A stretch of 56,985 nucleotides of DNA from Fidelibacterota bacterium. GTDB taxonomy: Bacteria; Fidelibacterota; UBA8477; JABMPR01. Positions 22,217 to 55,373 of the stretch are shown here, in pieces. The position numbers and the translations under genes were made by a program. Every line of letters starts with the position of its first letter. Within the stretch, counting starts at the first letter, position 1. The DNA is taken from positions 1 to 56,985 of the forward strand of contig JAIPGJ010000004.1 in the NCBI GenBank assembly GCA_021736185.1. The letters run 5' to 3'. The notes under the pieces are model-generated. The model was not told the DNA's origin, searched no databases, and saw only the letters and a program-made list of their open reading frames with translations.

Positions 22217-22603
22217 CTAAGAATTAAGACAACTTTTACAGGTCCCTTCGAGCTCGAGATGAAAAGACTCAACCTGAAAATCATGCTTTTCTGCAAAGGA
22301 TTTGATGATTGCTTGATCAATCATTTCAACATCATACCATTTACCGCAAACTGCGCAGCGAAAATGATCGTGGTGCCCAATATTTCCATCGTAACGAACC
22401 ATGGACTCATCTTTGAGTTTGATAATTCGCCCGGTCTCAACCAGCTGATTCAAATTACGATATACCGTTCCGAGGCTAATATTAGGAATTCGCTTTCTGG
22501 TTTCTTTATATATCCAATCTGCATTGGGGTGGACCAGGGTACTCTGAACTACTTCAAGAATAGTTTCTCTTTGTTTGCTGTATCTTTGTTTAATTGCTTC
22601 CAT
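22217..22603 (-). CDS. perR: Fur-family regulator, PerR-like
   Basis: HPNADWIY, PNISLGTVYRNL, RYDG..HHDHFRCAVC, CKSC. Confidence 0.75.
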   Translation of the reverse strand: MEAIKQRYSKQRETILEVVQSTLVHPNADWIYKETRKRIPNISLGTVYRNLNQLVETGRIIKLKDESMVRYDGNIGHHDHFRCAVCGKWYDVEMIDQAIIKSFAEKHDFQVESFHLELEGTCKSCLNS

Positions 22604-24043: not shown

Positions 24044-24272
24044 TGTGGAAACTAAGAGGGGAAGCGCAAAAAGAAATCAATAAGAGCGGAGGGAAATCTC
24101 CTTTTGTAGCTTCGCTTTAGCAATAAAAACTTTGCGCAATTGATAATTACAGGCACTATATTTGCATTAGTATTATCTTGGAGTAATAATTGCCAAAAAG
24201 CACCAATATTCTAAAGAATCTATCATCGAAGACATTCTTTCTGAATAGTAAATAATTTGAAGGAGTTTGAGT

Positions 24273-25571
24273 ATGTCATTATTGAAAAAAAAGTTAGAAC
24301 AAATCATCCCTCCATTTCGTGACGAGGTTGCAGAAATACGCAAGAATCATGGCGACAAAAAGTTATGTGATGTGACAGTTGCCCAGGCATACGGCGGTAT
24401 GCGAGGTGTAAAAGTTATGATCACTGAAACTTCTGCTCTGGATCCTGAGGAAGGGATTCGCTTTCGTGGGTATACGATTCCTGAGCTTCAGGAAAAATTA
24501 CCCCATGCTGCAGAAGGTGAGGAGCCCTTGCCGGAAGGTTTGTTTTACCTCCTGATGACCGGTGAACTACCCACAGAAGAAAATATTGCTGAAATCACCA
24601 AAGAATGGCAGGAAAGGGGAACTCTCCCTGCCCATGTCTATAAAGCCATCGATGCACTTCCCAAAACTACCCATCCTATGACTCAGTTCTCTGTTGGAAT
24701 TGTTGCTCAGCAGACTGAATCGATTTTTGCTGCGGAATACCGGGAAGGGATCAATAAACTTGATTATTGGAAACCAGTCTATGAAGACACCATGAATCTG
24801 CTTGCTCGTCTTCCAGCTCTGGCAGCATACATTTATCGTCGTTCATACAAGGATGGAAAAATTATTCCTGCTGATCCAACACTTGACTGGGGTGGTAACT
24901 TCGCTCACATGATGGGTTTTGACACGAAGATGTTCAGAGAACTCATGAGAATATACCTGACCATTCATGCCGATCATGAGGGTGGGAATGTATCCGCACA
25001 CACGACACATCTTGTCGGATCAACCTTGTCTGATGTCTATTATGCCTTATCAGCTGGCATGAATGGACTGGCTGGTCCCCTTCACGGTCTGGCAAATCAG
25101 GAAGTCTTACGCTGGATTATGGATGTAAAAGAGCAGCTCGGGGGTGGTGTGCCCACGATGGAAGATTTGAAGAAATTCGTTTGGGATACACTGGCTTCGG
25201 GCAATGTGGTTCCTGGGTATGGACATGCAGTGCTGCGTAAAACGGACCCTCGCTATTCAGCACAGCGGGAATTTGCCCTCAAGCATATGCCGGATGACGA
25301 ACTCTTCCAGGTCGTAAGTATGCTTTATGAAGTGGTTCCACCTATTTTACTGGAACAGGGAAAAGCCAAGAATCCATGGCCAAACGTGGATGCACATTCA
25401 GGTGTACTATTGGTTCACAATGGGATGCATGAGTACGATTTTTATACTGTACTTTTTGGTGTCTCGCGTGCCATGGGCGTGTTGGCATCTACCGTCTGGG
25501 ACCGGGCTATTGGCTTGCCTCTGGAGCGACCAAAATCCCTCACAACCCAATACATTAAATCCATTTTGTAA
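24273..25571 (+). CDS. gltA: Citrate synthase, eukaryotic type
   Basis: YGGMRG, EGIRFRG, IHADHEGGNVSAH, GLAGPLHGLANQEV, PGYGHAVLRKTDPR, PWPNVDAHSG. Confidence 0.95.
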   Translation: MSLLKKKLEQIIPPFRDEVAEIRKNHGDKKLCDVTVAQAYGGMRGVKVMITETSALDPEEGIRFRGYTIPELQEKLPHAAEGEEPLPEGLFYLLMTGELPTEENIAEITKEWQERGTLPAHVYKAIDALPKTTHPMTQFSVGIVAQQTESIFAAEYREGINKLDYWKPVYEDTMNLLARLPALAAYIYRRSYKDGKIIPADPTLDWGGNFAHMMGFDTKMFRELMRIYLTIHADHEGGNVSAHTTHLVGSTLSDVYYALSAGMNGLAGPLHGLANQEVLRWIMDVKEQLGGGVPTMEDLKKFVWDTLASGNVVPGYGHAVLRKTDPRYSAQREFALKHMPDDELFQVVSMLYEVVPPILLEQGKAKNPWPNVDAHSGVLLVHNGMHEYDFYTVLFGVSRAMGVLASTVWDRAIGLPLERPKSLTTQYIKSIL

Positions 25572-25592: not shown

Positions 25593-25627
25593 AAAGCCCT
25601 GGGTAATGCCGGGGCTTTTATTTTTTT
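25593..25627 (+). terminator. Intrinsic terminator after gltA
   Basis: AAAGCCCTGG-GTAATG-CCGGGGCTTT followed by a T run. Confidence 0.8.
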
Positions 25628-25762: not shown

Positions 25763-26200
25763 ATGCAATTAAAAGATACTCGTGTGCTCATCGTTGAAGA
25801 TGAGATTGTAGTTGCCAGTGAAATTAAACTACGCCTTGAGGCTATGGGATATGGCGTAATGGGGATTGTTAATAATGGTAGAGATGCTATTACTCGGGCC
25901 AATGAGCATTATCCTGACGTGATCCTTATGGACATCACTCTAAAAGGCAAGATGAACGGCCTGGAAGCAGCTCGGGAAATCAGTAGAGAGACCGATATTC
26001 CCGTAATATTTATTACTGCCCACACTGATAAGCCAACACTTGACTCTGCCCGCGAAGCGAGCTCGCATGGTATTTTCACGAAGCCATTTAGTGATGATGA
26101 ATTAATGGCAGCCATTCAACAAGCCACTATTTCCAAGCTGATGACGAATTATCTTAAGGACAAAGATGAAGCAGATGGCGATTTGGAGGACCCGGAGTAA
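25763..26200 (+). CDS. Single-domain response regulator (receiver)
   Basis: LIVEDE, ILMDITL..KMNG, FITA, TKPF; acidic tail, no output domain. Confidence 0.9.
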   Translation: MQLKDTRVLIVEDEIVVASEIKLRLEAMGYGVMGIVNNGRDAITRANEHYPDVILMDITLKGKMNGLEAAREISRETDIPVIFITAHTDKPTLDSAREASSHGIFTKPFSDDELMAAIQQATISKLMTNYLKDKDEADGDLEDPE

Positions 26201-26208
26201 GTCCTCAG

Positions 26209-29200
26209 TTATAAATATTTAACCAGCCCCCCCTGATCTTTTTCAATAATAAAACCAAATTTATAAAAATACCCCGGATGTAAAAATCCAGTTGTGATCA
26301 TCTTCTTCTGGGAATTTCTCATCCGATTGACAAATTCGTTTAACAGGCCCCTGCTGACCCCGCTGCCTCGATGATTCTCTGAGACGACGACTTTATCCAT
26401 ATAGACCACATCATCCCCCTGGTCGAGGTAAAAGAGTCCACCTATAACGCTACCCTTCTTATTTATTGCTACCAGGAATTTATGCTCGTGGGTAAAATTA
26501 ACATCCATTCGAGCTTTTATAAAATGCTGCTGAAGCTGAATTATTTCCTTGGGGTGCATCGCTCTGCGAATACGAAAGGTGGTGCCCTTGCTATCATGCC
26601 TGGAAATCATAATTTCAATTTCATCCAAAGCAGTGGATCGGGTGGCGATAAGTTCAATATCTTCACTGGGTGGCAGCTCTGGGAATGCCAGCCGCTTAAG
26701 AAAAAATGAGCTATATTCCTCCATTTCATTTGATCCAATATATTGACTGATTTCACTTTGGAGTGTGCCCCCATCGATGGCGTGTTGCCGCTGATTTCTT
26801 CCCAGATGGGTCAAATATGCTTTTAATTGTGCATCAGCTTCAGAAAATACTGTATTCATAAATAGTTGAACACGGGCATCAGGGTATTCGGGCTCACTGT
26901 CCTGGATATTGTAATCTCGGTATAAATCCTTCAAAAAGTGAGCTTTTGCATTGAGAGTAGCCCCCTGGTTGATGGAGAGCCAACGATGATAACGGCGCGT
27001 TGCGAAATAAACAGATTTTGGCTGAAAACCTTTCTGCTCAACCCAATCCAAAAACTGGAGCAGATCTTTACGCCGTGGTGTGCTGGTATGCTCATTTTCC
27101 AGAATCTCATTGAAAAAATCTGGACAATGCTTTTGCCCCAAAGCCTCCCTCATGGCGTGATAAAGTATTTCTGTCCCCACCTTGAGATTGAATTTGGGGA
27201 ACTCCTGCTCGGTGGCTCTAATAAATAATCTTTCCAGATTCTCAATAAACTCAAGGCCGGATGTTACTTCTGTGATACCTGCAATTGAAACCAGGCGACC
27301 GCCCACGTGATAATCGTGTATGGGGACGATTATTTTTCCTGGACTGGGAATAGAAATCATTTTCTTAAAACGGGTCCGCTTCCAGAAACTTGTGTAGGTC
27401 AATACTGCAGTCCAGACAAAATGGGGCCATATATGTTCGGGGGAGGGCATTTCATCTGAGGAACCGGCCCAGATAGCCTGTTTCAAATATTCACGAACTG
27501 TTAGCCCCGAAATAAATTCTTCTGACCACAGGTCTTGTTCTGGTTTATAGCATCCCAGGGTCTCGACCAACTGGTTAAATTGATTGTCACGGGAACAGGC
27601 CATGAGCCAGAATAATTCAGTGTTGACCTGTTCTGAAGTCAATTCATCATTCAAATTAAGAGCGAATTTATAGCTCCCATCACTACTCTGAACTGTTACC
27701 CGGTAAACAGTTTTCCCATGCGCACTGGCCAATAGATTGATCCAAATACCTTGAGGTGGAATTTTCCTCAAACTGAGTTGCTTCCCTTCAAAAAGCAGGT
27801 ACATCGACTCATTCAGTAAAGATGTATTGATAAAAGCTGAAGTAATTCGTTTACGATGTGGTGAGGTGACAGGTTTGTCGAAAAGCAAAACATCCTCCCA
27901 GTCCAGAGTTTGCTCGTGCTGAATGTTTCCAGTATCAGGATCCATGGCTTGCATTGATTGAGAAAAGTTTTCATTCAAGGCTGCATAGGTGCCAAGGATT
28001 TTTTGGGTAATATTACTTTTTGCAGGGAGATTGACAATTGAGCTGATCATGGCAGCTCTGATAGTGGCATAGTATCTGGGGAATTGCTTGGACCATGAAA
28101 AAAGAATCCCCAGAACATTTTCAAAAAGAATGGAAGACTTCTCCGCCTGAGACTCTTGACTGGATAACCATTTCAGGTAGTTGGAGGCGAGTCCAACTTT
28201 TTGAATATTGATGTTTGACCAGGAGGAAATATCGGAATTGATATTAAACAGCACTTTTCTTCCCAGAGCGTAGGTGACAATTCTTTCCAGATCATTAGCA
28301 GGAAAGAGTGCCACCACCTGTTCTACAGCAAATTGAGATTGAAGCAGATCATCAGATCGGATGAGACGTAGAAAAGCATATCGGACAATATTTCTGATGC
28401 TATCGTTGGAATTTGAGTAGATTCGATTCAAAAGACGAAAGGCGGGTTGAGAGGGGCGCAGGGTTTGAGAATAAACCATTAAAATGACTGGATACAAGGT
28501 TTCGAGGGAATATTCCGAATGACTCAATGCTTTTTCTATATCAGATTCCGCCTGCTGTTTGTCCTCCCTGGAAAATTCCAGATCAGTCCAGGTTCCAGGA
28601 AGTAAGTCTGGACTCAGATTGACTGGTTTTATTCTCAAATGAGAATAATCCAGAAATTCTTCTAATTCAAGGTTCCCAAGGCAATAGGCAGGTTGTCTAA
28701 TAAATTCCTCAAATTGAAGGATATTTCCCTGAAACTGGTAGAAAAATGATCCAATCCGAATCTCGTCAATCCCTCGTTCAATTCTCAGAGAATATCGCTT
28801 ATTCCTATGCTTGAGAATTTTATCCTCAATGAGCAGGTCATTTTGAGTCCAACCTCGCTGTAGAAATACCCAATTAGGTATTTGAACCTCCAGGTCTTCC
28901 ATGAAAAACGATTTGTAGGGCCTTTCATACAGGGAATCAACCGTCGTTTTGAAGTGTTCCAGAATGATTGATCGTTTAAAGGTTCCCTTTTCTGTCAACT
29001 CACCTAAATCCTTCTTGAAATCCCGGTCTACCTGACGGAAATCGACAATTCTTTCAAAGGGAGCTAAAAATGAATTCACGGAGTGAATCACATTGGCTAA
29101 ATAGTCTCGTACTTTTTGCTCATCGGCCCAGATGGTCTTCACATCTTTATGCTTCTTATTCAATCTCACCAAGGCTGTATTATAGGGCATATGATCACCC

Positions 29201-30846
29201 ACAATAAAGAGCTGGTGGATGCTGTCAAAATCCCTGAACATATTTTCTATTTTTTGGGGAGCGATGGTCTGACCCTTGGCATTTTTATAGATTTCTTTTT
29301 TGCGATCAATGATTTCAATTTGGCCATCTTCAAGAGATTGAAAAATATCACCTGTCGTAAACCATCCATCAGGGCGTTCATCAGGATCGGTTGGATTCCA
29401 GTAACTACCTGATACATAGGCACCACGAATCCACAACTCGCCATCCTCAGCCAGTTTTATTTCCATGCCTGGCAGAGGAATACCAACTGAGTTTTCGATA
29501 TAGCCATCAGTCGGTGTCATGGTGATTCCACCGGTAGCTTCAGTCATACCATATCCGCTATGCAGATGTAAATCATAGGCCTGAAAAAACCGAAATATTT
29601 CAGGTGGTAAATAGCCTGCAGCTGAAAGTCCCCAGCGTAAAGCCCCCCCCGTGACCTCTTTGACCCTGGGAGCTATATTGACAGGGTCCTCATTTTGGAG
29701 ATCAATCTTTGAAGCAATGGTATCATAGATATCCTGCCACCTTTTGGGTATACTGATAAGGACAGTCGACTGATTGTCTTTGAGATCGCTCAGCAGAGAT
29801 TGTATGCCTTTGCCACTGGAAAATGTATACTCAGCTCCCCAGAAGATTGAACCCCACATTTCAAGAAACCTCCCAAAGGTGTGAAACAGAGGCAGAAAGC
29901 AGAGGAAGCGATCTTCACTCCCCAGGTTTAAAGCCAGACTTCTGGCAAATCTTTTAGAAATGATATTCTCATAAGTGAAAACAATACCCTTCGGATATCC
30001 GGTAGTACCAGAAGTATACATAATACTGGCGATATGTGAGAGAGTGACTGACAGCCGGATTCCTTCCAGCCAATTCAAGGTTTCTCCTGAACCACCTTCA
30101 TCCACTAGAGTCTTATAGGATTTAACCAGGGGATTGTTTGTAGTGAAGCGATCGTATGTAATAATATGCTTGATAAATGGTAACTTGGGTAGCATGCTTT
30201 CGAGGCTGCGTAAATGTTGGGAGTCGGAAATGAATACCCCTTCTATTTCAGCATGGGCAAGAATGTACTCTATCTGAGCTGGGGGTGCAGCAGGTTGGAT
30301 TGGAACATTGACAAATCCATAGCTCAGGCAGGCTATATCAGTGATAGCTACCTCCAAACGATTTTCAGATATGATGGCAATTCTAGGGCTGGTGCTGCCC
30401 ATCAATTCAATGAGGGCGGCAGCGAGATGATCCACTGAATTTTTCACAGCTGACCATGATTGTTGTTGCCACTCGCGGCCCTGTTTAAAATTAAAGAGGG
30501 TTTTATTCCCCAGTGTTGTAGCCCGGCGTTGGAAGAGATGACCTGGCGTATAATTCAGTTTGCGCATCATCTCCAGCTCTCGATTGAACCATTCATTTTG
30601 AATGTTCGATGACTTTATCAGTGAGGTAAAAGAAGGGTTCCATCCCTGTTCTAAAAGGAAAGTCAGACTATCCCGACTCCCTGTTGCCAGGATGTGGTCG
30701 GCATATTTGAGAAATTCATCTGACCAAGCGTTCAAATCCTCAGGTGGTTGAGCTTCCAAAGCGGTGAAATATTGCACAAGAGCAGTTTCTTGCTCAACTA
30801 AATCTGAATCCACATTATCCAAGAGATCGTGAGGGGAATATTTCAC
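26209..30846 (-). CDS. Long-chain acyl-CoA ligase-like domain + helical region + kinase-like region + GNAT domain
   Basis: YTSGTTGYPKG, GYGMTEA, GWFTTGD, IDRKKEI; C-terminal VVSENHRGSGVS acetyl-CoA motif A. Start set at GTG 30846 after AGGAAA (ORF track gives 30900). Confidence 0.85.
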   Translation of the reverse strand: MKYSPHDLLDNVDSDLVEQETALVQYFTALEAQPPEDLNAWSDEFLKYADHILATGSRDSLTFLLEQGWNPSFTSLIKSSNIQNEWFNRELEMMRKLNYTPGHLFQRRATTLGNKTLFNFKQGREWQQQSWSAVKNSVDHLAAALIELMGSTSPRIAIISENRLEVAITDIACLSYGFVNVPIQPAAPPAQIEYILAHAEIEGVFISDSQHLRSLESMLPKLPFIKHIITYDRFTTNNPLVKSYKTLVDEGGSGETLNWLEGIRLSVTLSHIASIMYTSGTTGYPKGIVFTYENIISKRFARSLALNLGSEDRFLCFLPLFHTFGRFLEMWGSIFWGAEYTFSSGKGIQSLLSDLKDNQSTVLISIPKRWQDIYDTIASKIDLQNEDPVNIAPRVKEVTGGALRWGLSAAGYLPPEIFRFFQAYDLHLHSGYGMTEATGGITMTPTDGYIENSVGIPLPGMEIKLAEDGELWIRGAYVSGSYWNPTDPDERPDGWFTTGDIFQSLEDGQIEIIDRKKEIYKNAKGQTIAPQKIENMFRDFDSIHQLFIVGDHMPYNTALVRLNKKHKDVKTIWADEQKVRDYLANVIHSVNSFLAPFERIVDFRQVDRDFKKDLGELTEKGTFKRSIILEHFKTTVDSLYERPYKSFFMEDLEVQIPNWVFLQRGWTQNDLLIEDKILKHRNKRYSLRIERGIDEIRIGSFFYQFQGNILQFEEFIRQPAYCLGNLELEEFLDYSHLRIKPVNLSPDLLPGTWTDLEFSREDKQQAESDIEKALSHSEYSLETLYPVILMVYSQTLRPSQPAFRLLNRIYSNSNDSIRNIVRYAFLRLIRSDDLLQSQFAVEQVVALFPANDLERIVTYALGRKVLFNINSDISSWSNINIQKVGLASNYLKWLSSQESQAEKSSILFENVLGILFSWSKQFPRYYATIRAAMISSIVNLPAKSNITQKILGTYAALNENFSQSMQAMDPDTGNIQHEQTLDWEDVLLFDKPVTSPHRKRITSAFINTSLLNESMYLLFEGKQLSLRKIPPQGIWINLLASAHGKTVYRVTVQSSDGSYKFALNLNDELTSEQVNTELFWLMACSRDNQFNQLVETLGCYKPEQDLWSEEFISGLTVREYLKQAIWAGSSDEMPSPEHIWPHFVWTAVLTYTSFWKRTRFKKMISIPSPGKIIVPIHDYHVGGRLVSIAGITEVTSGLEFIENLERLFIRATEQEFPKFNLKVGTEILYHAMREALGQKHCPDFFNEILENEHTSTPRRKDLLQFLDWVEQKGFQPKSVYFATRRYHRWLSINQGATLNAKAHFLKDLYRDYNIQDSEPEYPDARVQLFMNTVFSEADAQLKAYLTHLGRNQRQHAIDGGTLQSEISQYIGSNEMEEYSSFFLKRLAFPELPPSEDIELIATRSTALDEIEIMISRHDSKGTTFRIRRAMHPKEIIQLQQHFIKARMDVNFTHEHKFLVAINKKGSVIGGLFYLDQGDDVVYMDKVVVSENHRGSGVSRGLLNEFVNRMRNSQKKMITTGFLHPGYFYKFGFIIEKDQGGLVKYL

Positions 30847-31056
30847 CGCTTTTCCTTTTTCTTTAGCCTGTAACATAGGAAGGATAATCTTGACATCCAA
30901 ATTAATTGCTAAGTGCCACCTGCTGAATAGAGCAACGGTTTAATCGTGTTGATATTTACTTATGATTACAGCGCGTTATTTTAATAAATGTGATGAAATT
31001 CGTCCGAAAGAGATTATAATCCTTTACCCATCAATTTTCATGAATTGACGCGTATA

Positions 31057-31093: not shown

Positions 31094-32545
<1,452 letters not shown>

Positions 32546-32834: not shown

Positions 32835-34652
32835 TTAAGCTGTTACCTCAGCATTGATCTTGGATCGAAACGTTTGATAAAGCTCTTCCAGACGTTGGCC
32901 CTGTTTCTCAATCGCCTCACTCAATGAGGGAAGATTTTCACCAGGGTAGGAGTGACCTTTGGCGATGGTTTTGCAATACTCAAATCCTTTGACCATGTTG
33001 TCATAGAATGCGTGAAGAGAGGGATACTCTTTGGGACTCATTGCATCATGAATAAGGGTCCGGAAATGGTCAACATAGAGCTGAATCTCCTTGGCAAACA
33101 TATGGGGCCGATCTGAGGACAGCAATTCTTTACCGCGACCATAAATCTGATCAATCATCTCTTCCAGAGAATAATTCCTATTAAACCAGGAAAGATTAGG
33201 TCCGGGACAAATTGCTTGCGGTGATCTCTCGGCAGGTGAAATTCCCAGGCTGATGAGAACCCCATTTCCCAGATGCTCACAAAGACAGGTTTTTGCCAGG
33301 ACTCTATTGATTGCCGCATCTTTTTCAATCCCAGGTGCCATCTCATTTTCAATCTGAGCCAGTTTGTGGTTCATGTATTCTGAAGAGGCCGTGCAAATTG
33401 GCAATTCCGTGAATTCTGTATTTGAGACTAGGAATCCTTTGGGACAAGGTGAGCCAGGTTTTCCTTTGCGATAGCGATCCATTGACCATTTTTCAGATCC
33501 TGAATCTTTTAAATTATTAAAAGGAACACCCAGGGGAGAAGCGCCGCTCAGATAGAGGCTGTCATCTGTAGCATTCATCAATTGCATACGTGTTACGGTA
33601 TCAATGGGCGTTGCCTCCGGAACCAGGAGAAAAGGACTGGCCCAACCCGTACGATCCATGCCAAAATCTTTTTCTAAGCGCTGTACTTCACCATGATTGC
33701 CGATGCCACCCTGTACGGTTATTTCTGGGTGGTGTTCAATATCCTCAGGATAGTCCCATCCCATTTTTTCATAGAAACGTTTGATGATGGGCTGGAATTG
33801 AGTCCCTAGCTCAGCTCGCTTATCTTTGAAGTCCTGGAGGAGAATAGGGAGTAAATGACCGGGAGAGGCAAAGGCATGACCGCCACAATTCAATCCTGAC
33901 TCAATTCTGAATTCTGAGATTTCCAGACCTTTTTTAGCCATATAACGACCTTGAATCATGGCGGATCTGAAATCACTGACTTTGAGAATAATCTTCTTTT
34001 TTATTTCACCACTCTGATCGCGATAAAAATCCTGATACTTCGTCATGTAACCATACAGGCTTTGATTGATTCCAGCCGAAAAAACCATGGCGGATTCAAG
34101 TTTACTCTTGGCGAAACCCCGGAGGGCTGCTTTAGCATCAGAAAAACCTTCACCCAGTGGGGTACCATGTTTGTCCATATCGATACGATCCACTTTGACC
34201 ATAATATTTACATCTATCCCACCTGGTCTCATCCTACGGGTTAAATCGGCTGATATCTGGTCTCGTAATTCACCTGGCTGTGTGGCCAAAAGATCTTGAT
34301 AAGTCTTCTTGAGAGTACTTGTGTCTGGCAATAACTCGAAATACCGGGTTTTCTCATTTTTCTCGAAAAAGGGAAGTGAACGCACATGTTCCATTTTCAA
34401 TTGTACGATGTCATTGACCATGTCAAGGTAGGCTGTAATGCGCTTGGCACGACCATCCTCTTCACGATGGGGAATCCGTTCATAGGGTAAATTGTATTTT
34501 CCTGTATAAAATTTTCTAAGTCGTTCCAACAGGATATCATCAATAATGGAAATCACTGAAGTGATGCCTAAATGGGCCAATCGAATAGGCGTGTCGATTG
34601 AATGACCAGTTCCCATGACGGGTATATGAAAATTATGAGTTGTATCTGTCAC
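32835..34652 (-). CDS. Hypothetical protein, FMN TIM-barrel-like (NMO/FabK-like) with Cys motifs
   Basis: IPVMG, ESGLNCGGH, VQGGIG, GWASPFLLVPEA, SPLGVPF; CPKG, ICTAS, CLC, ICPGP. Confidence 0.7.
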   Translation of the reverse strand: MTDTTHNFHIPVMGTGHSIDTPIRLAHLGITSVISIIDDILLERLRKFYTGKYNLPYERIPHREEDGRAKRITAYLDMVNDIVQLKMEHVRSLPFFEKNEKTRYFELLPDTSTLKKTYQDLLATQPGELRDQISADLTRRMRPGGIDVNIMVKVDRIDMDKHGTPLGEGFSDAKAALRGFAKSKLESAMVFSAGINQSLYGYMTKYQDFYRDQSGEIKKKIILKVSDFRSAMIQGRYMAKKGLEISEFRIESGLNCGGHAFASPGHLLPILLQDFKDKRAELGTQFQPIIKRFYEKMGWDYPEDIEHHPEITVQGGIGNHGEVQRLEKDFGMDRTGWASPFLLVPEATPIDTVTRMQLMNATDDSLYLSGASPLGVPFNNLKDSGSEKWSMDRYRKGKPGSPCPKGFLVSNTEFTELPICTASSEYMNHKLAQIENEMAPGIEKDAAINRVLAKTCLCEHLGNGVLISLGISPAERSPQAICPGPNLSWFNRNYSLEEMIDQIYGRGKELLSSDRPHMFAKEIQLYVDHFRTLIHDAMSPKEYPSLHAFYDNMVKGFEYCKTIAKGHSYPGENLPSLSEAIEKQGQRLEELYQTFRSKINAEVTA

Positions 34653-34830
34653 TAAGGGACCTCACAAATAAGTTAAGCTAACTGTCTCAATGCCAAACCT
34701 TTAGGTGGAAAACCTTCGCAGGCATTGCTATGCGCAATAGTAACCACGATAATCAGGAATTCAATAAAAGAATCTGTGGTAAATGTTAACATTCTGACAA
34801 CCTAAGATTTCATTCTGAAAAGGATAAAAC

Positions 34831-34864
34831 AAAAAGGGGCCGCCCTTTTGGGACAGCCCCTTTA
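34831..34864 (-). terminator. Terminator after the small outer-membrane protein gene
   Basis: Minus strand AAAGGGGC-TGTCCCAAAAGGGCG-GCCCCTTTTT. Confidence 0.7.
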
Positions 34865-34883
34865 AAAACTAATCATTTGCAGC

Positions 34884-35336
34884 TTAGAAAAAGTACCTGA
34901 CTCCAAGATTTCCCCCGAAACCAAAACCGCCGCCCCCTGAAATTTTCAAGGTCGGTGTACTTTCAATGAAAATATCTAAATTATAGTCTGAAAGATAGTA
35001 ACCCAATCCAATGACACCACGAACACCCAGATCCAGCTCGGTAGTCTCTTCCAGATCGTCGTTTAAGCCTTTATGTGTCCCCAGTGCAATACCCCCTCCA
35101 TAATAGACAGGTGTTGTATTGTCTGTAATTTTGAGCAATTCAGGCATATCAAATAAATAGTCTGCAGACAGATTGCTTCCAAGATTCCAATTGACAGCAA
35201 CGGCGTTGGTCTCACTCATCCAATATTTTCCGCTAATACCGTCAACGGACAATCCAATTCCGATACCTGAATTTTGTCCGAAAGCACTCAGTGCAATCAT
35301 CAAAAAGGTAAACAACGAAATAAAACTTTTAAACAT
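34884..35336 (-). CDS. Small outer-membrane beta-barrel protein
   Basis: Signal peptide, Gly/aromatic alternating strands, C-terminal GVRYFF. Confidence 0.75.
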   Translation of the reverse strand: MFKSFISLFTFLMIALSAFGQNSGIGIGLSVDGISGKYWMSETNAVAVNWNLGSNLSADYLFDMPELLKITDNTTPVYYGGGIALGTHKGLNDDLEETTELDLGVRGVIGLGYYLSDYNLDIFIESTPTLKISGGGGFGFGGNLGVRYFF

Positions 35337-35402
35337 ATTTACTGCTCCTCTAAAATTACAGTGAATGTAAAATATTTCTATTCATGCTCAATCAAAAATA
35401 TT

Positions 35403-38378
35403 TCAGATGTCTCTTTCCAGGGCTATGCTACCAGGGCGCCAGACATGTCCTTCTCCCTTCATACCATCAACTTGAATGACAAATGGATCTTCAAAATGAA
35501 AGTGTTTGAGATATTTAGTCTGGCTTGTGGGCTTTTGGCTTTTAAACCACTCCAGATTCATGTTTTCAGTTAAAAGTCGTGGTGGAATCGTGAAATAGCT
35601 GATTCCCAGAGAAGTGATGTTCTGAAAAAAGTGACTTCCAAAGGAGGGGTCAACATATAAATTGGGTAAACCCACTTCTACAATAGATCTGGCATTGGAA
35701 ATAAAATTCCAGCTGACAGGAATCCCAAGCATGGGATCTGCTGTTCCCCAGCGTCCCGGCCCTACCAGGAGATATGATTTTTCTGGACTAAATTCTCGAT
35801 TTATCACTCGTATTTCCTGAGCAATCTGCTGGCTTTTTAAAATTTCGAAATGATCAATATCGATATACACTAAATCATGAATTTCGATATTATCACCATT
35901 CCCCAGACAGATATCACTCTTAAAGATTTCATCTGTTTTTGCTGCCTGGGTTAGGTCAACCAGGTGCGGTCGTTCAAAAGTGACCATAGGTCTGATTTGT
36001 AAAATGGATAATTCAGCAGGTTCGCCTGATTTATCTGGAAGATTTACAGCGAATTCCATTTCCACCTCACAGCCCATACCGATCTTGCCAAATCCCATCA
36101 AATCGCTAAGCATATTAGCCAGGGGGAGGGATTTCCATTTCAAAATATTCGCGAAGGTAATGATGCGGGGTCCCGCTTCGAAGAGGGAATCACGAAAGCG
36201 TCCATCTTGAAACGAATAGACACTGGCTATCTGGTCAAGGCTGCCATGCTCCTCGGCAATTTTTAAATCGAGTTGCACTAGATTGGAACTTTCACCACTT
36301 TCCAGAGGCAATTCACAGCGGGCGGTATCCAAAGCATAAAATTTATTCTGGCTATTTTTAAGAATGGAGTGTTCATCGTAGTATTGGGGGAGTACGTTGG
36401 GTCGTTTCGGACTGAATTTGAGTGCCTTTTCACCATTCACGACGGTGCGACCCAAACCAAGGGCAATAGTGGCCAAACCCTCTTCTCGCTGCATGGAACC
36501 TTGAGGATAGTAGTTGAGGGTCTGCAACACACCGGAAAAGCTGGGGTAATAATAATCACCATGATGGCGACCGCATAGGTGCTGGATAACCACAGCCATC
36601 TTTTCATCCTCAGGGCGATTCCCAGTGGATTTGAGATAAGCAACTGCTTCTCTATGAAATCCTGAGGCATACACCAGCTTGATCGCTTCCAGGAGTTGAA
36701 ATAAGCGCGTATCAAGTGCTGGAGAGCAGTTGGGGAGCATGTAGGTGCTATAAATTCCGGCAAAAGGTTGAAATAGAGAATCTTCCAGTAAACTGGATGA
36801 TCTGACAGCCAGAGGACCAGAATGGTGCCCAAGATATGAGTGAAGTTGGGCTGTAAAATTGCCGGGGAAGACAGCTTTACGAAAAAGTTCATCAATCTCT
36901 TCATTGGTCTCGGCCTCAGCTGCCTTGACATTTAATTTATTGATATCAAGAAAACTTTCATAGATATCCGTACCCACCACCGCGAACTGGGGAACCCCTA
37001 TCTGGATGCCAGGATATTTCTGAGAAAAGTCAAAACGTCGCTTATGGGCGATGAGGAAAGCTAAGCCACGTGCTTTGCCCCCTATGGATCCACCACCAAT
37101 CCGGACGGCAGTAATTGTCGGATCATAGGTATCAATATCAAAATAGCCAATATTGTCAAAATGCTGCAAGACCCGTTGACGTTCAATTGCATCCAGGAGA
37201 ATCTTGCGAAATTCTTCGGGGTCTTCAAATTCATCATAACTGATGGGTTTGAGAAAGTCTGCCAGGTCAAAGTAACCGCGGACTGCCAGCCAGTTTGAGA
37301 AATGATCCCGGCGGGAATGATATTCGATACTCTGTATGGGCACGGATTCCAGCGCGGCACTAAGGGCATTTAGGTGGCGGATTTTGGTGATGGTCTTTCC
37401 CTCTCTGGTACTGAATATCAGATCCCCGAAACCGCAATGTTTGATCACAAAACTTTGCAATCTCTTGAGCAGTTGTGGTGAATATTTCGCTATGAAATAG
37501 GCGCCCAATTCCTTGGCCATCTTTTCGTTGCTACCCTCCATGGATTGCATCAGGATGGGCATGGTGGCATTCTTTTTCAGTATAATTTTGATAAAATCAG
37601 CACCCGCCTTGGGGTCCAGTTTACCATTTCGGGGATATCTCACATCCGAAATCACCGCCAGAAGATTATTTTTATACAACTTGTAGAGTTCTGTAGCTTC
37701 CTCAAAGGTAGAGGCCAGCAGAATCTTTGGACGCGAGCGCATCCTGAACAGACGTAATTCATCGGTGTACTCGTGTTTCATCAATTTCTGAGTCGTATTG
37801 ATAATCACGCTATAAAGCATGGGTAAAAAGATGGAGTAATATTTTGGAGAGTCTTCCACCACAATAATGGCTCTGGCGCCCCCTTTGAGAATATCTCTGG
37901 GAGCATTCATGCGATCTTCAATGTACTTCACAATCGTCGTGAAAATGTTTGAGTCGCCATGCCAGATAAAGGTTTTATCAATACCTTCTATATTGTCAAC
38001 CCGCTTGACGGCCCATTGATAATCACGTCGATTTGAAGCCAGCATGATGACAGGAATCGATTCGTATTTCTTTTTTATTTTGCGTCCCAACTCAAAGGGG
38101 TCCATATCAGAGATTCTGGTCATGGTTATGACTAGATCATAATGTCGTGCTCTTAATTTTCTCAGGGCATGATCGCCAGTGGAGACCCTGCTAATTCGAG
38201 GGGCACTACTCAGGTTCATATCCTGATATTCGGTGAAAATCATTTCACCTATTCGTCCATCTTCTTCAAGTTTAAAGGCATCGTACAGACTGGAGATTAA
38301 TAGGATTTCATGAACTCGATGCTGCATCATGTCCCTAAAACCTGGTCTTTGCTTGAGTGTGAGTACTTGATTAAACAT
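35403..38378 (-). CDS. Receiver-domain + PEP/pyruvate-binding (PPDK N-terminal, ATP-grasp) protein
   Basis: Two receiver-like domains; IGGKARGLAF, LAVRSSSLLED, FAGIY.T, EKMAVVIQ, LGLGRTVV, EMEFA, LQIRP; C-terminal GPGRWG and SFGSHFFQN. Confidence 0.88.
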   Translation of the reverse strand: MFNQVLTLKQRPGFRDMMQHRVHEILLISSLYDAFKLEEDGRIGEMIFTEYQDMNLSSAPRISRVSTGDHALRKLRARHYDLVITMTRISDMDPFELGRKIKKKYESIPVIMLASNRRDYQWAVKRVDNIEGIDKTFIWHGDSNIFTTIVKYIEDRMNAPRDILKGGARAIIVVEDSPKYYSIFLPMLYSVIINTTQKLMKHEYTDELRLFRMRSRPKILLASTFEEATELYKLYKNNLLAVISDVRYPRNGKLDPKAGADFIKIILKKNATMPILMQSMEGSNEKMAKELGAYFIAKYSPQLLKRLQSFVIKHCGFGDLIFSTREGKTITKIRHLNALSAALESVPIQSIEYHSRRDHFSNWLAVRGYFDLADFLKPISYDEFEDPEEFRKILLDAIERQRVLQHFDNIGYFDIDTYDPTITAVRIGGGSIGGKARGLAFLIAHKRRFDFSQKYPGIQIGVPQFAVVGTDIYESFLDINKLNVKAAEAETNEEIDELFRKAVFPGNFTAQLHSYLGHHSGPLAVRSSSLLEDSLFQPFAGIYSTYMLPNCSPALDTRLFQLLEAIKLVYASGFHREAVAYLKSTGNRPEDEKMAVVIQHLCGRHHGDYYYPSFSGVLQTLNYYPQGSMQREEGLATIALGLGRTVVNGEKALKFSPKRPNVLPQYYDEHSILKNSQNKFYALDTARCELPLESGESSNLVQLDLKIAEEHGSLDQIASVYSFQDGRFRDSLFEAGPRIITFANILKWKSLPLANMLSDLMGFGKIGMGCEVEMEFAVNLPDKSGEPAELSILQIRPMVTFERPHLVDLTQAAKTDEIFKSDICLGNGDNIEIHDLVYIDIDHFEILKSQQIAQEIRVINREFSPEKSYLLVGPGRWGTADPMLGIPVSWNFISNARSIVEVGLPNLYVDPSFGSHFFQNITSLGISYFTIPPRLLTENMNLEWFKSQKPTSQTKYLKHFHFEDPFVIQVDGMKGEGHVWRPGSIALERDI

Positions 38379-38600
38379 GGCTTAAAATAATTGAGATATT
38401 CTTATTAAAAATGTTCATTTCCATAATCCGGCCTCACAAAAACATTTTGTGGCTGAGTTTGGGAATGCAAAAACAAGGCTTCCCATAGGAATCTGCACCT
38501 AAATGTCTTATTCTAGCCGCATTATACAATCATTGTTACATGTTGGTAGCCAGGAAACCTAAGGGTAATGGCAATTTCATATTGGGGAGCTCGTGAGACT

Positions 38601-38618
38601 TGGCACGCTGTTTGTCTC
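38601..38618 (+). promoter_or_regulatory. Sigma54-like -24/-12 element upstream of the ald-like operon
   Basis: TGGCAC-GCTGT-TTGTCTC, about 47 nt before the ATG. Confidence 0.55.
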
Positions 38619-38664
38619 TATTTTAATATCAATAATATCGGGGGATGAAGAGTGGGAGTTTGCA

Positions 38665-39759
38665 ATGAATTTTGGGATTTTGCATGAAAGTCGCTTGAAC
38701 GAAAAGCGAGTCTGTCTAACACCCAATGGAGCAAAATCTCTGCTTAAGAGAGGGCATACTGTCTTTCTTGAAACGGGAGCGGGTCTGGCCAGTGGATTTA
38801 ACGACCAGGATTATGTGAGCAAGGGTGCACAGATTGTTTTTAGTCAGGAAGAAATTTATGGTCGTTCTGATATATTATTGAAAATATTACCGGTCAATGA
38901 AGAGTCGCTGGGGTATATGCGCGAAAGTCAAACTGTTTTCACATTTCAGCATCTCTCTGTGAGTTCCCCGGATGTATTTAGTGGTCTTAGGGATAAAAAA
39001 ATCACACTGATAGGTATGGAAATCATGGAAGAGGCCGATGGCTCCCGACCTATTTTAAATATCATGAGTGAGCTGGCTGGTCAAATGGCACCTATTATAG
39101 CGGGTAACTATCTTGGTCGTGATCCCATGGGTCGAGGTGTGTTGTTGGGCAGTGTCCCTGGAGTAGCGCCGGCATCTGTGGTTATCATTGGTGCTGGAAC
39201 GGTGGGGACCAGTGCGGCAAAAGCCTTTATCGGGCTTGGTGCTCAAGTTCACGTTCTGGATAAAAGTATTAATCAATTGAGAAAAGTAAAAGATAAGTTA
39301 GGCGATCGTATCACGACCATTTATGCCAATCAAACAGCCATTGAGAAAACCTTAACCTTTGCTGATGTTGTGGTGACAGCCATTCTCGAAAGAGGAGCTG
39401 TGACGCCTCGAATCATTACTCGAGAGATGGTCAGAGATATGAAACATCTGGCAGTATTGATTGACTATTCAGTTGATGAGGGTGGGGCCAGTGAAACTAC
39501 CAGACCTACACTGCTCTCAGATCCTGTATATGTCGATGAAGATGTGATTCACTATTGTGTCCCCAATATTACCTCGGGAATTAGCCGAACCACCTCCATT
39601 GCACTGACGAATGTATTGTCAAAATATCTGAATCAAATTGCAGAGCTTGGATTGGCAAAGGGTTTGAAGGATTCACATGCCCTGAGCAAAGGTTTGTACA
39701 CGCTTGGGGGTCGCAATATGCAACCCGTTCTAAATCGAAGGTTCGGAATAAAAATATAA
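38665..39759 (+). CDS. ald: Alanine dehydrogenase-family protein (divergent)
   Basis: EKRVCLTP, ETGAG..SGF.D..Y, MSELAG, GVLLGSVPGV, IIGAGTVG, ETTRPT, HYCVPN. Confidence 0.8.
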   Translation: MNFGILHESRLNEKRVCLTPNGAKSLLKRGHTVFLETGAGLASGFNDQDYVSKGAQIVFSQEEIYGRSDILLKILPVNEESLGYMRESQTVFTFQHLSVSSPDVFSGLRDKKITLIGMEIMEEADGSRPILNIMSELAGQMAPIIAGNYLGRDPMGRGVLLGSVPGVAPASVVIIGAGTVGTSAAKAFIGLGAQVHVLDKSINQLRKVKDKLGDRITTIYANQTAIEKTLTFADVVVTAILERGAVTPRIITREMVRDMKHLAVLIDYSVDEGGASETTRPTLLSDPVYVDEDVIHYCVPNITSGISRTTSIALTNVLSKYLNQIAELGLAKGLKDSHALSKGLYTLGGRNMQPVLNRRFGIKI

Positions 39760-41057
39760 TGACCTGGACTGAGAAATACCGTTCACGAATAGGTTCTGCT
39801 GAGGAGGCCATGAGCCTCATCAAATCGCGGGATTCAATCTATCTGCATGCTGGGGCTGCAACCCCGCAGTTATTGGTTGATGCTTTCAGTAAACGAGCGA
39901 TGGAGCTTGAAGGACTTACCATTAGTCACATTCTCACACTGGGTGAGGCAAAATATGTCGCTCCAGAGATGGCAGGACATGTCCGTCTTAATTCCTTATT
40001 TACAGGTACCAATGTTCGAGAATCTGTGAACACAGGCAGGGCTGACTGGACGCCCATTTTTCTTTCTGAGATTCCAGGTTTATTCAAGAACGGTCATATT
40101 CCGGTTGATGTTGCCCTGATTCATATAAGCCCTCCTGATTCTCATGGTTTTTGTAGCTTTGGAGTCAGCACGGACACAACCATTGCCGCCTGTAAAGCCG
40201 CAAAAATTATTGTTGCCATGGTAAACAGGCAGATGCCCCGGGTCCATGGGGACAATTTCATACATGCTTCAAAATTGGATTTTATCGTTGAGGCAAATGA
40301 ACCCCTTTTTCAGACACCCAAGGCTGATTTGTCCGAACGTCACATGCAAATCGGAAAATATATTGCCAGTCTTATCGAAGATGGCTCAACGCTTCAAATG
40401 GGGATTGGCGCTATTCCTGATGCGACGCTGTTTTATCTCAAAGAGAAACGAAATTTAGGTATCCATACTGAGATGTTCAGTGATGGTGTCGTGGAATTAG
40501 TGGAATCAGGCGTCATTAATGGTGAAGAAAAAACGCTGCATCCCGGCAAGGTGGTTTCCAGTATTGTCATGGGCTCTCAACATGTCTACGATTTTATTGA
40601 TGAAAACCCCTTTATGGAGTTTCATCCCACAGATTATGTGAATGATCCCTATATTATTGCCCAAAACAATAAAATGGTGGCCATTAATTCATCAATAGAA
40701 ATTGATTTGACAGGACAGGTATGTTCCGACTCCATGGGAAGAAGTAATTTTTCGGGTATTGGTGGGCAGGTTGATTTTATGAGGGGCGCTTCCCGGAGCC
40801 CAGGTGGCAAGCCCATCATAGCCATGCCTTCTACTGCTAGAGATGGAACCCAATCGCGTATCGTGTTGGATTTGAAACCGGGCGCGGCTGTGACCACAAG
40901 CAGGGGAGATGTCCACTATATTGTGACTGAGTTTGGCGTTGCCCATCTCCATGGAAAGACATTAAAAGAAAGGGCCAAGGCTCTGATAGCAATTGCTCAT
41001 CCGGATTTCCGAGAGGAATTGGAACGACAATCATTTGAAAGTAAACTGTTACATTAA
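39759..41057 (+). CDS. Acetyl-CoA hydrolase/CoA-transferase (4-hydroxybutyrate CoA-transferase-like)
   Basis: FLSEIP, LQMGIGAIP, LGIHTEMFSDG, SGIGGQVDF.RGA, VTEFG.A.L.GK, IAHPDFRE. Confidence 0.92.
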   Translation: MTWTEKYRSRIGSAEEAMSLIKSRDSIYLHAGAATPQLLVDAFSKRAMELEGLTISHILTLGEAKYVAPEMAGHVRLNSLFTGTNVRESVNTGRADWTPIFLSEIPGLFKNGHIPVDVALIHISPPDSHGFCSFGVSTDTTIAACKAAKIIVAMVNRQMPRVHGDNFIHASKLDFIVEANEPLFQTPKADLSERHMQIGKYIASLIEDGSTLQMGIGAIPDATLFYLKEKRNLGIHTEMFSDGVVELVESGVINGEEKTLHPGKVVSSIVMGSQHVYDFIDENPFMEFHPTDYVNDPYIIAQNNKMVAINSSIEIDLTGQVCSDSMGRSNFSGIGGQVDFMRGASRSPGGKPIIAMPSTARDGTQSRIVLDLKPGAAVTTSRGDVHYIVTEFGVAHLHGKTLKERAKALIAIAHPDFREELERQSFESKLLH

Positions 41058-41092
41058 GATAGTGACACTATGAATCTTAGGAGGTTCTAAAT

Positions 41093-41461
41093 ATGGCTAA
41101 TGCTCGAGGACTTGTTGCAGTCAATGTCGAGGAATGCAAAGGATGCAATTTATGCATCGTAGCATGTCCTGTTGACGTTCTGCACTTAGCAGATAGTTTT
41201 AATACGCATGGTTATAGTCCAGCCGAATATGACGGGGAAGGCTGCACAGGCTGCGGGATCTGCTATTATGCATGTCCCGAACCAGGGGCCATCACTGTGT
41301 ATAAAAATTGGGCAGAAGCTCAAGAAGCTTATATATGCCAAACCAAAAAGGTCCCGAGTCGGTTGACGATTACGGATGCTGTGAAGGGCTTGGCAACATG
41401 TGAAGCTTGTGGGCAGGAAGTCATCCTTAGTAATTTTTCACATCTTAGTTTCGCGGAGTAG
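41093..41461 (+). CDS. 2x[4Fe-4S] ferredoxin (oxidoreductase delta subunit) with C-terminal extension
   Basis: [12 protein letters not shown] and [13 protein letters not shown]. Confidence 0.9.
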
Positions 41462-41464
41462 AGT

Positions 41465-55175: not shown

Positions 55176-55213
55176 TAAACCGGTCCCTTTTCTCGCGAAG
55201 GTTCATGGAAATG

Positions 55214-55352
55214 CTCCCAGTCAAGTATCCTGACTTCCAGATCATCCGCCGCTGATGCCTTCCCTTGAAATCAAAGTGGCCGTTATCAGCATTGTCCCTG
55301 GTTACAGTAGCGCGACTGTGCCCGACTTTCACGGGCTTCCTTGTGCTAGGAG
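55214..55352 (-). ncRNA. Cobalamin riboswitch
   Basis: AAGGAAGCCCGTGAAAGTCGGGCACAGTCGCGCTACTGTAA...GCCACT...GGGAAGG...AAGTCAGGATACTTG; closing stem CTCCTAG/CTGGGAG. Confidence 0.92.
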
Positions 55353-55373
55353 ACGTTTACAAAAATCAGTCTT

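Follow-up and report, generated by a model that had tools for sequence, protein, structure and literature searches.

Reversible lysine acylation of bacterial metabolic enzymes is understood largely from Pat/AcuA-type enzymes, which draw on bulk acetyl-CoA. In the part of a 2021 review that classifies them by domain organisation, bacterial GNAT protein acetyltransferases fall into five types: those with an NDP-forming synthetase-like module at the N-terminus, those with the same module at the C-terminus, those with small ligand-binding domains (cAMP, NADP or ACT), those consisting of a GNAT domain alone and those with tandem GNAT domains; none of the types set out there carries an AMP-forming ligase or a kinase-fold domain (PMC8556138). 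Here we describe a giant gene (26209..30846, minus strand) in a 56,985-nucleotide stretch of contig JAIPGJ010000004.1 from a Fidelibacterota bacterium (assembly GCA_021736185.1), hereafter the window. Its product consists, in order, of an ACSL/FadD-like ANL ligase, a small beta domain, an armadillo-like helical repeat, a kinase-like (PKL) domain and a Gcn5-type GNAT domain. No description of this architecture was found in the open full-text literature, a search that excluded subscription journals and supplements. The reading that we favour, held tentatively and with chances somewhat short of even, is that the gene codes for a single-chain enzyme of acyl activation and transfer at the acetyl-CoA/tricarboxylic acid (TCA) cycle entry point.

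The gene and all of its parts described below lie on the minus strand. GTG at 30846 was taken as the start, because database relatives are almost all 1,545 aa long; this start gives 1,545 codons plus a stop and is the coordinate used in an initial annotation of the window. In frame upstream of it lie an ATG at 30876 and a TTG at 30900, the codon from which the longest minus-strand open reading frame (ORF; 26209..30900, 1,563 aa) is counted. Residue numbers refer to the 1,545-aa form unless marked as ORF numbering, which is that of the 1,563-aa form. The initial annotation had described an ANL domain, a helical stretch, a kinase-like N-lobe and hinge without HRD or the canonical catalytic set, and a C-terminal GNAT domain. 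This anatomy proved right, and all of the motifs quoted for it (YTSGTTGYPKG, GYGMTE, TGD, GELTEKGTFKR, AHGKTVYRV, KFALNL, LWSEEFISGLTVREYL and HRGSGVS) were found in the translation. Pfam recognised three domains only in the window protein, namely AMP-binding, AMP-binding_C_3 and Acetyltransf_1, with no match across ORF residues 661-1450 (~790 residues) and none in the middle region of any of 18 family members scanned singly. A PDB sequence search with the middle region returned GNAT matches only and no family for the remainder. The N-terminal extension (30535..30846; residues 1-104) has no Pfam match, and 2 of its 104 columns are at least 90% conserved.

The fusion is widespread and contiguous. 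A phmmer search of 1.84 billion cluster representatives with the middle region (790 aa) found 237 of them, each standing for a cluster at 50% identity, at E ≤ 1e-3, with 186 at E ≤ 1e-10 and 79 at E ≤ 1e-30. Among the 150 matches listed, 66 were at least 1,400 aa long, 25 measured 850-1,399 aa and 59 were shorter. A scan of species-representative genomes (one genome per species) from a 7-sequence alignment revealed 502 places that encode a relative, and the best 80 of the 502, amounting to 70 loci, were kept for all locus counts given here. Whole-protein tblastn showed that the ANL-through-GNAT stretch is contiguous in 59 of the 70 loci, in a single frame in 55. At least seven of the 11 loci without a contiguous match are cut by a contig end; the matches at L037, L044 and L062 begin near a contig start, and that at L068 lacks the last 48 residues. 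The initial annotation had named an assembly artefact as a reason to discard the fusion, and contiguity in 59 of 70 loci from several phyla disposes of it. Frame changes within the gene at L023, L031, L052 and L058 are probably sequencing indels or pseudogenes; at L052 (4774-9749) two overlapping ORFs of 787 and 871 aa break within the helical repeat, at no domain boundary. Natural split forms were rejected as well: the 32 examined relatives of 850-1,399 aa are all collinear with the window protein with starts scattered between positions 1 and 687, and the frame changes at the four loci fall away from domain boundaries. The relatives in this size range are fragments and represent no second architecture. 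The fusion is obligate as far as seen, and old.

By label, the carriers belong to Marinimicrobia (Fidelibacterota in NCBI), Gemmatimonadota, Acidobacteriota, Calditrichota, KSB1, Methylomirabilota and others; the locus L048 lies in record CP011806 of the cultured Acidobacteria bacterium Mor1. When a divergent member served as the query, a further 655 clusters at 90% identity were found, a second subfamily that, where named, derives from bins of Zixibacteria, KSB1, Kapaibacterium, Bacteroidota, Gemmatimonadetes and Acidobacteria. Database names for the relatives are generic (GNAT family N-acetyltransferase, AMP-binding protein, long-chain acyl-CoA synthetase). A Marinimicrobia bin encodes a protein 85% identical to that of the window. 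Three loci titled Lentisphaeria (L002, L008 and L016) encode proteins 63-83% identical to the window protein over the best segment and are nested in the Marinimicrobia clade on both trees; these labels are probably wrong.

The ANL part is the most constrained portion of the protein. Motif counts were taken from a MAFFT alignment of 217 full-length relatives, an uneven sample of which about half comes from the second subfamily. Columns at least 90% conserved make up 124 of 538 in the ANL part, 20 of 417 in the PKL domain and 10 of 151 in the GNAT domain. The large N-domain (29398..30534; residues 105-483), with 86 of its 379 columns conserved at this level, matches AMP-binding (PF00501; ORF 123-501) with 211.8 bits against a cut-off of 29.9. 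The C-terminal subdomain (28921..29397; residues 484-642), of the ACSL/FadD11/carboxylic acid reductase (CAR) type, holds the A8 hinge and matches AMP-binding_C_3 (PF23562) at residues 524-642 (ORF 542-660) with 40.2 bits against a cut-off of 20.8. Core ANL motif residues are kept in 205-217 of the 217 relatives. In the A3 motif these are T278 (215), S279 (216), G280 (216), K286 (216) and G287 (214); in A5, G431, G433 and E436 (217 each); in A7, T498 (216) and D500 (217); and in A8, D514 (212) together with R515, K517, K521, G525 and P530 (217 each). Because the core motifs are kept and the ANL part is the most constrained, the domain looks catalytically active, and its conservation pattern fits a working enzyme, not a decayed sensor.

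The type of ligase was examined with sequence models and solved structures. The top NCBIfam models were long-chain-fatty-acid-CoA ligase PRK06187 (186.8 bits, cut-off 476) and FadD11 (177.2 bits, cut-off 950), and all 25 models listed scored below their own cut-offs, which places the protein outside each of these equivalogs. The PDB chains that aligned in one stretch through the entire C-terminal subdomain, to about profile position 641-645, were those of CAR (5mso, 6oz1, 5msc and 5msp), and the best PDB E-value for the ANL part belonged to the amide-forming ligase Cfl (7a9j). The hinge region of the giant protein appears to resemble the fatty-acyl-CoA synthetase signature motif. The predicted ANL type suggests a fatty acid over acetate as the substrate. 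An ACSL/FadD-type ligase with a PDB match to an amide-forming enzyme would also suit small-molecule N-acylation, in which the GNAT domain would transfer the ANL-activated acid to an amino acid, a polyamine or a lipid head-group amine, giving an N-acyl amino acid or lipid. Many GNAT enzymes acylate small amines. We consider this quite unlikely, since the Cfl match is only marginally ahead of those to many other ANL enzymes, the GNAT domain is nearest to Gcn5 and Pat-type protein acetyltransferases, and the 70 neighbourhoods show no recurrent genes for lipids or secondary metabolites.

The A10 region departs from the canonical pattern in an unusual way. The initial annotation had noted a threonine at the canonical A10 place in the motif GELTEKGTFKR (28972..29004; residues 615-625). 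In a gap-free alignment to 6oz1, of modest posterior confidence and the sole solved-structure alignment that reaches the motif, the CAR lysine that we take to be the catalytic A10 residue lies under Thr622. The substitution is family-wide: position 622 is Ser in 126 relatives, Thr in 89, Asp in one and Asn in one, so that Ser or Thr occupies it in 215 of 217 and Lys never does. Lys620, two residues before the canonical place, is kept in 216 of 217 relatives, Arg625 is invariant (217/217), and position 624 is mostly Asn (87), Lys (76) or Arg (50). The absence of a canonical lysine therefore stands, whereas a loss of A10 function does not follow from it, since a lysine is fixed nearby. On the alignment, the A10 lysine of this family is shifted by two residues rather than simply lost. 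The family thereby offers a natural experiment on the ANL A10 lysine, with a two-residue shift in 216 of 217 members.

This conserved lysine also bears on a self-regulated acyl-CoA synthetase, in which the GNAT domain would acylate Lys620 in cis or between subunits and switch the ligase off, the fusion being a Rosetta-stone version of Acs with Pat or AcuA. The recognition motif of Pat is the G-K context of the A10 lysine. In the giant protein the lysine is shifted and its context is K-G, which argues against such recognition, and self-regulation would leave about 750 conserved residues (beta domain, repeat and PKL domain) without a role and the linkage to citrate synthase, described below, unexplained. 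Its appeal comes from the near-invariance of Lys620, from the Foldseek match of the model to 4u5y, the GNAT domain of Streptomyces lividans Pat in complex with the C-terminal domain of Acs, and from precedent: in the parts of the reports that deal with it, GNAT acetylation of the A10 lysine is established for AMP-forming ligases (PMC11255334, PMC4053389) and AcuA forms a stable complex with AcsA (PMC11255334). On balance, we regard self-regulation as rather improbable.

The 903 residues that follow the ANL part (643-1545) were modelled with AlphaFold2 from a 45-sequence alignment. The model has a mean predicted local distance difference test (pLDDT) score of 88.3 and a predicted template-modelling (pTM) score of 0.80, the latter suggesting that the post-ANL part is a rigid multi-domain body. 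It resolves into units at residues 643-757, about 760-967, 978-1394 and 1396-1545, and its Foldseek matches in the PDB (120 with E ≤ 0.001) are kinases and GNAT proteins. The first unit is a small beta-rich domain (28576..28920; residues 643-757) with strands at model residues 2-69 and pLDDT of about 90, for which neither Pfam (18 members) nor ESM Atlas gave an informative match. It is followed by an armadillo/HEAT-like alpha-helical repeat (27946..28569; residues 760-967), with helices at model residues 118-324; over this repeat, the family profile gave a weak match to designed armadillo repeat proteins (E about 1e-3). ESM Atlas returned nothing scoring above 0.88 for the beta and helical part.

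The next unit (26665..27915; residues 978-1394) comprises the PKL domain and extra C-terminal helices. Modelled alone, it reached a pLDDT of 94.5 and a pTM of 0.91. Foldseek gave at least 500 PDB matches with E ≤ 0.001, and among the matches listed, 50 of 50 were kinase-fold proteins, headed by YabT (E 1e-6), Rio1, an aminoglycoside-phosphotransferase-like corramycin kinase, PRPK/Bud32, the JAK1 pseudokinase and Rv3197. Normalisation to the target gave TM-scores of 0.53 for Rio1 and 0.59 for PRPK. The predicted secondary structure runs through three strands, a helix, two strands, a hinge, two helices and a loop, corresponding to beta1-3, alphaC, beta4-5, alphaD and alphaE. The kinase-like N-lobe and hinge that the initial annotation had perceived in the letters are thus supported by the predicted structure, and the central domain is modelled with a bilobal kinase fold. 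None of the 18 members scanned matched a kinase Pfam family. DUF6206 resembled the PKL domain in ESM Atlas (score 0.95); having neither a supporting hidden Markov model match nor a paper behind it, it is a lead only.

Residues at the catalytic positions indicate a degenerate active site. The beta3 place (1060) is Asp in 150 and Lys in 33 of the 217 relatives and thus has no conserved lysine, and Arg1049 in beta2 is kept in 207. After alphaE the family consensus reads mostly x-P-S-P-x-N-V-I-V-P-x-x-D-[FY]. The catalytic-loop-like stretch of the window protein, SIPSPGKIIVPIHDY (27310..27354; residues 1165-1179), has Ile at the place of the HRD aspartate (1166, which precedes the Asn by five residues), Lys at the Asn place (1171) and the DFG-like Asp1178. 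Across the family, the HRD-Asp place holds Asp in 23 of 217 relatives, position 1171 is Asn in 162 and Lys in 37, the latter including the window copy and most of its close Marinimicrobia relatives, and Asp1178 is kept in 206. The set expected of an active protein kinase (beta3 Lys, HRD Asp, Asn and DFG Asp) is incomplete in the window copy. Since catalytic base, Asn and beta3 Lys are all missing and only the DFG-like Asp and the beta2 Arg remain, we read the window PKL domain as a predicted pseudokinase, or as a domain that uses the nucleotide pocket for something other than kinase activity.

Other members come closer to an active site, and the central domain could instead be an active atypical kinase or another nucleotide-dependent transferase that phosphorylates, for example, the acyl-CoA product or a protein target, which would make the protein trifunctional. 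In WNK kinases a relocated lysine stands in for that of beta3, and Arg1049 could similarly replace the missing residue here; 152 of 217 relatives combine Asn1171 with Asp1178. Kinase-like ACAD10/11 domains act on acyl-CoA according to the part of a preprint that addresses them (10.1101/2024.01.09.574893). Against catalysis, 138 of these 152 relatives lack the HRD-place Asp, so that 14 of 217 have the complete Asp-Asn-Asp set, Ile and Lys fill the Asp and Asn places of the window copy, and the scanned members are devoid of kinase Pfam matches. An active kinase is accordingly very improbable. Conservation in the PKL domain peaks in the extra C-terminal helices (W1289, 217/217; R1325, 211; T1332, 212; F1334, 206; A1282, 205), which points to a conserved surface or pocket there.

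The chain ends in a Gcn5-type GNAT domain (26212..26661; residues 1396-1545). Acetyltransf_1 (PF00583) matches residues 1450-1517 (ORF 1468-1535) with 27.9 bits against a cut-off of 20.7, and this match recurs in all 18 members scanned. The top PDB match of the family profile was Tetrahymena GCN5 (tGCN5; E 2.4e-10), and the GNAT matches found by Foldseek included tGCN5, E. coli PatZ (9it0), MsPat (4oll) and the S. lividans Pat structure mentioned above. The CoA pyrophosphate loop R/Q-x-x-G-x-G/A reads RGSGVS in the window; among the 217 relatives, position 1493 is Arg in 83, Lys in 61 and Gln in 32, G1496 is kept in 199, and position 1498 is Gly in 114, Ser in 59 and Ala in 29. Residues of the N-terminal strand are also kept (D1418, 211/217; R1427, 206/217; E1434, 215/217). 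The donor site appears intact, and the domain looks competent.

The matches to PatZ and to other Pat proteins recall the type I and type II bacterial GNATs, in which, according to the classification of the review cited above, a GNAT domain is joined to a large regulatory domain resembling acyl-CoA synthetases (PMC8556138). By analogy, the GNAT domain could be a protein acetyltransferase that uses bulk acetyl-CoA while the ANL part only senses. The absence of the canonical A10 lysine and the central-metabolic nature of the adjoining genes are both consistent with such a sensor. However, the synthetase-like domain of Pat has lost its catalytic His, as the section of the same review on these proteins states (PMC8556138), whereas the core ANL motifs of the giant protein are near-invariant within its most constrained part, and the synthetase is AMP-forming here and NDP-forming in Pat. 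Sensing by an inactive ANL part is therefore unlikely, if worth keeping in view.

Gene neighbourhoods link the giant gene to citrate synthase. In the window, a eukaryote-type citrate (Si)-synthase gene (24267..25571, plus strand) is convergent with the giant gene; its product carries PF00285 and scores 679.3 bits against TIGR01793 (cut-off 619.75), and a terminator-like hairpin of the gene lies at 25593-25618. The enzyme is of the eukaryotic/mitochondrial type rather than the usual NADH-regulated bacterial type. A citrate synthase gene lies downstream of the giant gene in 38 of the 70 loci by tblastn and in 30 by ORF clustering, which missed copies in GC-rich genomes where the shadow ORF on the opposite strand is longer. 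The 30 ORF-called genes lie on either strand and start 92 to 4,483 nt past the 3' end of the giant gene, and the eight found by tblastn alone are also downstream. Citrate synthase is present at 15 of 16 Marinimicrobia-type loci, the sixteenth having just 129 nt of downstream flank, and at 23 of the 54 other loci, 42 of which have at least 2 kb downstream. By label, loci with and without it number 18 and 4 in Gemmatimonadota, 12 and 0 in Fidelibacterota, 2 and 18 in Acidobacteriota and 0 and 3 in Calditrichota, and further single loci carry a Deltaproteobacteria label (L017), a Cytophagia label (L018) or no label (L060).

On a FastTree phylogeny of 58 giant proteins, which omitted 12 loci where no ORF reaching 1,200 aa was called, the adjacency requires 8 changes and is found in at least seven places. 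Of the adjacent citrate synthases sampled, 15 of 16 were of the eukaryote type (E ≤ 1e-50 to the TIGR01793 model), and that of L018 is a non-orthologous type II/2-methylcitrate-synthase-like enzyme. Because a non-orthologous enzyme occupies the same place, we read the adjacency as functional rather than as inherited order. Further genes that recur or stand out occur nearby: acetate kinase neighbours the giant gene at L061 and L069, a gene for an ADP-forming acetyl-CoA-synthetase-like protein adjoins it at four Gemmatimonadota loci, aconitase sits between it and citrate synthase at L067, and multihaem cytochromes lie near it in Holophagae and Thermoanaerobaculia loci. Citrate-siderophore biosynthesis was considered and rejected, the flanks containing no NRPS-independent siderophore (NIS) synthetase or related genes.

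The initial annotation had noted the divergent NADP-specific glutamate dehydrogenase (GDH) gene gdhA and named its product among possible acylation targets. This gene was found where it had been placed (31145..32545, plus strand; NF006929, 778 bits, cut-off 536), and it recurs as cluster C5 at 11 loci, which are all of the Marinimicrobia type and are those with an upstream flank. Its candidacy as a conserved partner was nevertheless rejected, since the pairing is confined to Marinimicrobia-type loci, in contrast to a citrate synthase link that spans several phyla. Palmitoyl-CoA inhibits mammalian GDH, according to a report that, in the portion concerned with this effect, gives no such support for citrate synthase (PMC3178282).

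Taken with the near-invariant ligase motifs and the apparently competent acyltransferase, this linkage forms the basis of the single-chain activation-and-transfer reading introduced at the outset. The ANL part would convert a free carboxylate, more probably a medium- or long-chain fatty acid than acetate, with ATP and CoA into acyl-CoA, and the GNAT domain would spend that acyl-CoA, or acetyl-CoA, on N-acylation of a target. The most likely target would be a lysine in enzymes of central metabolism, the citrate synthase encoded alongside being the first candidate. Acylation would in this way be coupled to the supply of carboxylate, ATP and CoA instead of to the bulk acyl-CoA pool. The helical repeat and the pseudokinase would provide a rigid scaffold and may bind a nucleotide or a CoA-type ligand that gates the GNAT domain. 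The alternatives discussed above are partly compatible with these steps, as feeding and self-inhibition could coexist. Both roles put forward in the initial annotation, that of an acyl-sensing regulator and that of an activate-and-transfer enzyme, would agree with the data.

Several observations count against the activation-and-transfer reading. The canonical A10 lysine, which is required for adenylation in studied ANL enzymes, is Ser/Thr here, and if Lys620 is no substitute, the ANL part may only bind a ligand. Its chain-length preference is a guess, the model scores being far below the equivalog cut-offs. In the GNAT domain, the column aligned to the beta4 Glu of tGCN5, which we take to be the catalytic general base, is occupied by Tyr in the window protein and by His in the family consensus; two positions further on, an acidic residue (D1484) is kept in 204 of 217 relatives. 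Acyl-CoA is free to diffuse, so that its supply needs no fusion. The flanks of 32 of the 70 loci, including 18 of the 20 labelled Acidobacteriota, contain no citrate synthase gene, some of these flanks being short, and the adjacency itself is silent on the direction of the link, which might reflect a substrate, a user of the product or co-regulation.

A bolder version would make the family a sixth architectural type of bacterial lysine acyltransferase, one that makes its own donor on site and hands it over within one rigid particle to the Gcn5-like domain. Citrate synthase and other TCA-entry enzymes would be acylated, the pseudokinase would read the nucleotide or energy state, and the whole would be a bacterial single-chain counterpart of the eukaryotic synthetase-fed, pseudokinase-scaffolded Gcn5 complexes. 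That all of these propositions hold together is doubtful. If the synthetase-Gcn5 fusion does work as proposed, it would couple acylation directly to the supply of free acid and ATP, which suggests a new link between protein acylation and central metabolism. The family also supplies a new bacterial pseudokinase family, and it is a large one in abundant, poorly studied lineages such as Marinimicrobia, Gemmatimonadota, Acidobacteriota, Zixibacteria, KSB1 and Calditrichota.

The remaining surroundings of the gene were also surveyed. A single-domain response-regulator receiver (25763..26200, plus strand) is convergent with the giant gene and ends 8 nt from its stop. Its best model is a PhyR-family receiver (99.4 bits, cut-off 240), it has no output domain, and its cluster (C2) comprises 15 Marinimicrobia-type loci and L068. 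Beyond gdhA, the region 32835-38378 on the minus strand encodes a 991-aa protein (35403-38378) with a receiver and a PEP-utilising-enzyme (PPDK_N) ATP-binding domain, followed by 150-aa and 605-aa proteins that neither Pfam nor NCBIfam recognised; clusters agreeing in size and position (C7, C17 and C8) are found upstream of gdhA at 10, 5 and 10 loci of the Marinimicrobia type, respectively. About 8 kb from the giant gene, a run on the plus strand (38593-43953) encodes alanine dehydrogenase, an acetyl-CoA hydrolase/transferase, a ferredoxin and a two-subunit 2-oxoacid:ferredoxin oxidoreductase, which are further acetyl-CoA-node genes. A cobalamin riboswitch (55202-55365, minus strand; 75.7 bits, gathering threshold 31.5) is located immediately upstream of a TonB-dependent receptor gene (53067-55175, minus strand), which is likely a B12-regulated uptake system. 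Two Fur-family regulators are encoded in the window, one at 5651-6091 (plus strand), adjoining a feoB iron transporter gene, and one at 22217-22603 (minus strand). Near the giant gene, Rfam detected no riboswitch or other known RNA. A defence-system reading was rejected after PADLOC gave no match, and a mobile-element reading was rejected with no plasmid match.

Among known systems, the giant protein resembles Pat/PatZ in layout: both have a large module related to acyl-CoA synthetases towards the N-terminus, a Gcn5-type GNAT domain at the C-terminus and a connection to central carbon metabolism. The Pat module, however, is NDP-forming and catalytically dead in the account given by the review's section on Pat (PMC8556138), while the ANL part described here is AMP-forming with intact motifs. 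Consistent with this difference, Pfam found no CoA_binding, Succ_CoA_lig or ATP-grasp_5 domain in the window protein, which sets it apart from the Pat/PatZ type I arrangement, and Pat has none of the beta domain, armadillo-like repeat and kinase-fold domain. Acs with Pat or AcuA offers a second parallel, in which an AMP-forming ligase and a GNAT enzyme cooperate and the lysine of the A10 loop is the known contact point. Those partners are separate proteins, whereas the giant protein has an ACSL/FadD-type ligase with Ser/Thr at A10 and a lysine two residues earlier. ACSL, FadD11/FadD15 and the adenylation domains of CAR provide the best sequence models for the ANL part and share the C-terminal subdomain family PF23562, but the giant protein scores far below their equivalog cut-offs, its A10 lysine is shifted and 900 extra residues follow.

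The PKL domain, as modelled, shares with Rio1, Bud32/PRPK, YabT and the JH2 domain of JAK1 a bilobal kinase fold with the same order of elements. It differs from them in having no sequence family match, no conserved beta3 Lys and no conserved HRD Asp, in its short Asn-to-Asp spacing and in a conserved 160-residue helical extension with the invariant W1289. The bifunctional AAC(6')-APH(2'') also unites a GNAT domain and a kinase fold in one chain, and an APH-like phosphotransferase (8agy) is among the Foldseek matches. In that protein the domain order is opposite, both domains are catalytic, there is no ANL part and the gene confers resistance, whereas the giant gene has a housekeeping context and no plasmid match. 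In eukaryotes, ACSS2 is coupled to lysine acetyltransferases (KATs), and Tra1/TRRAP is a HEAT-plus-pseudokinase scaffold for Gcn5 in SAGA. The co-location of a Gcn5-like domain, a helical repeat with a pseudokinase fold and an acyl-CoA synthetase may be likened to these assemblies as an analogy of design only, as the latter are separate eukaryotic proteins, their pseudokinase belongs to the PIKK lineage (phosphatidylinositol-3-kinase-related kinases), and the likeness to the giant protein is one of fold. Each domain of the giant protein comes from a known superfamily and Pat provides a precedent for the logic of the design, but the combination appears to be new.

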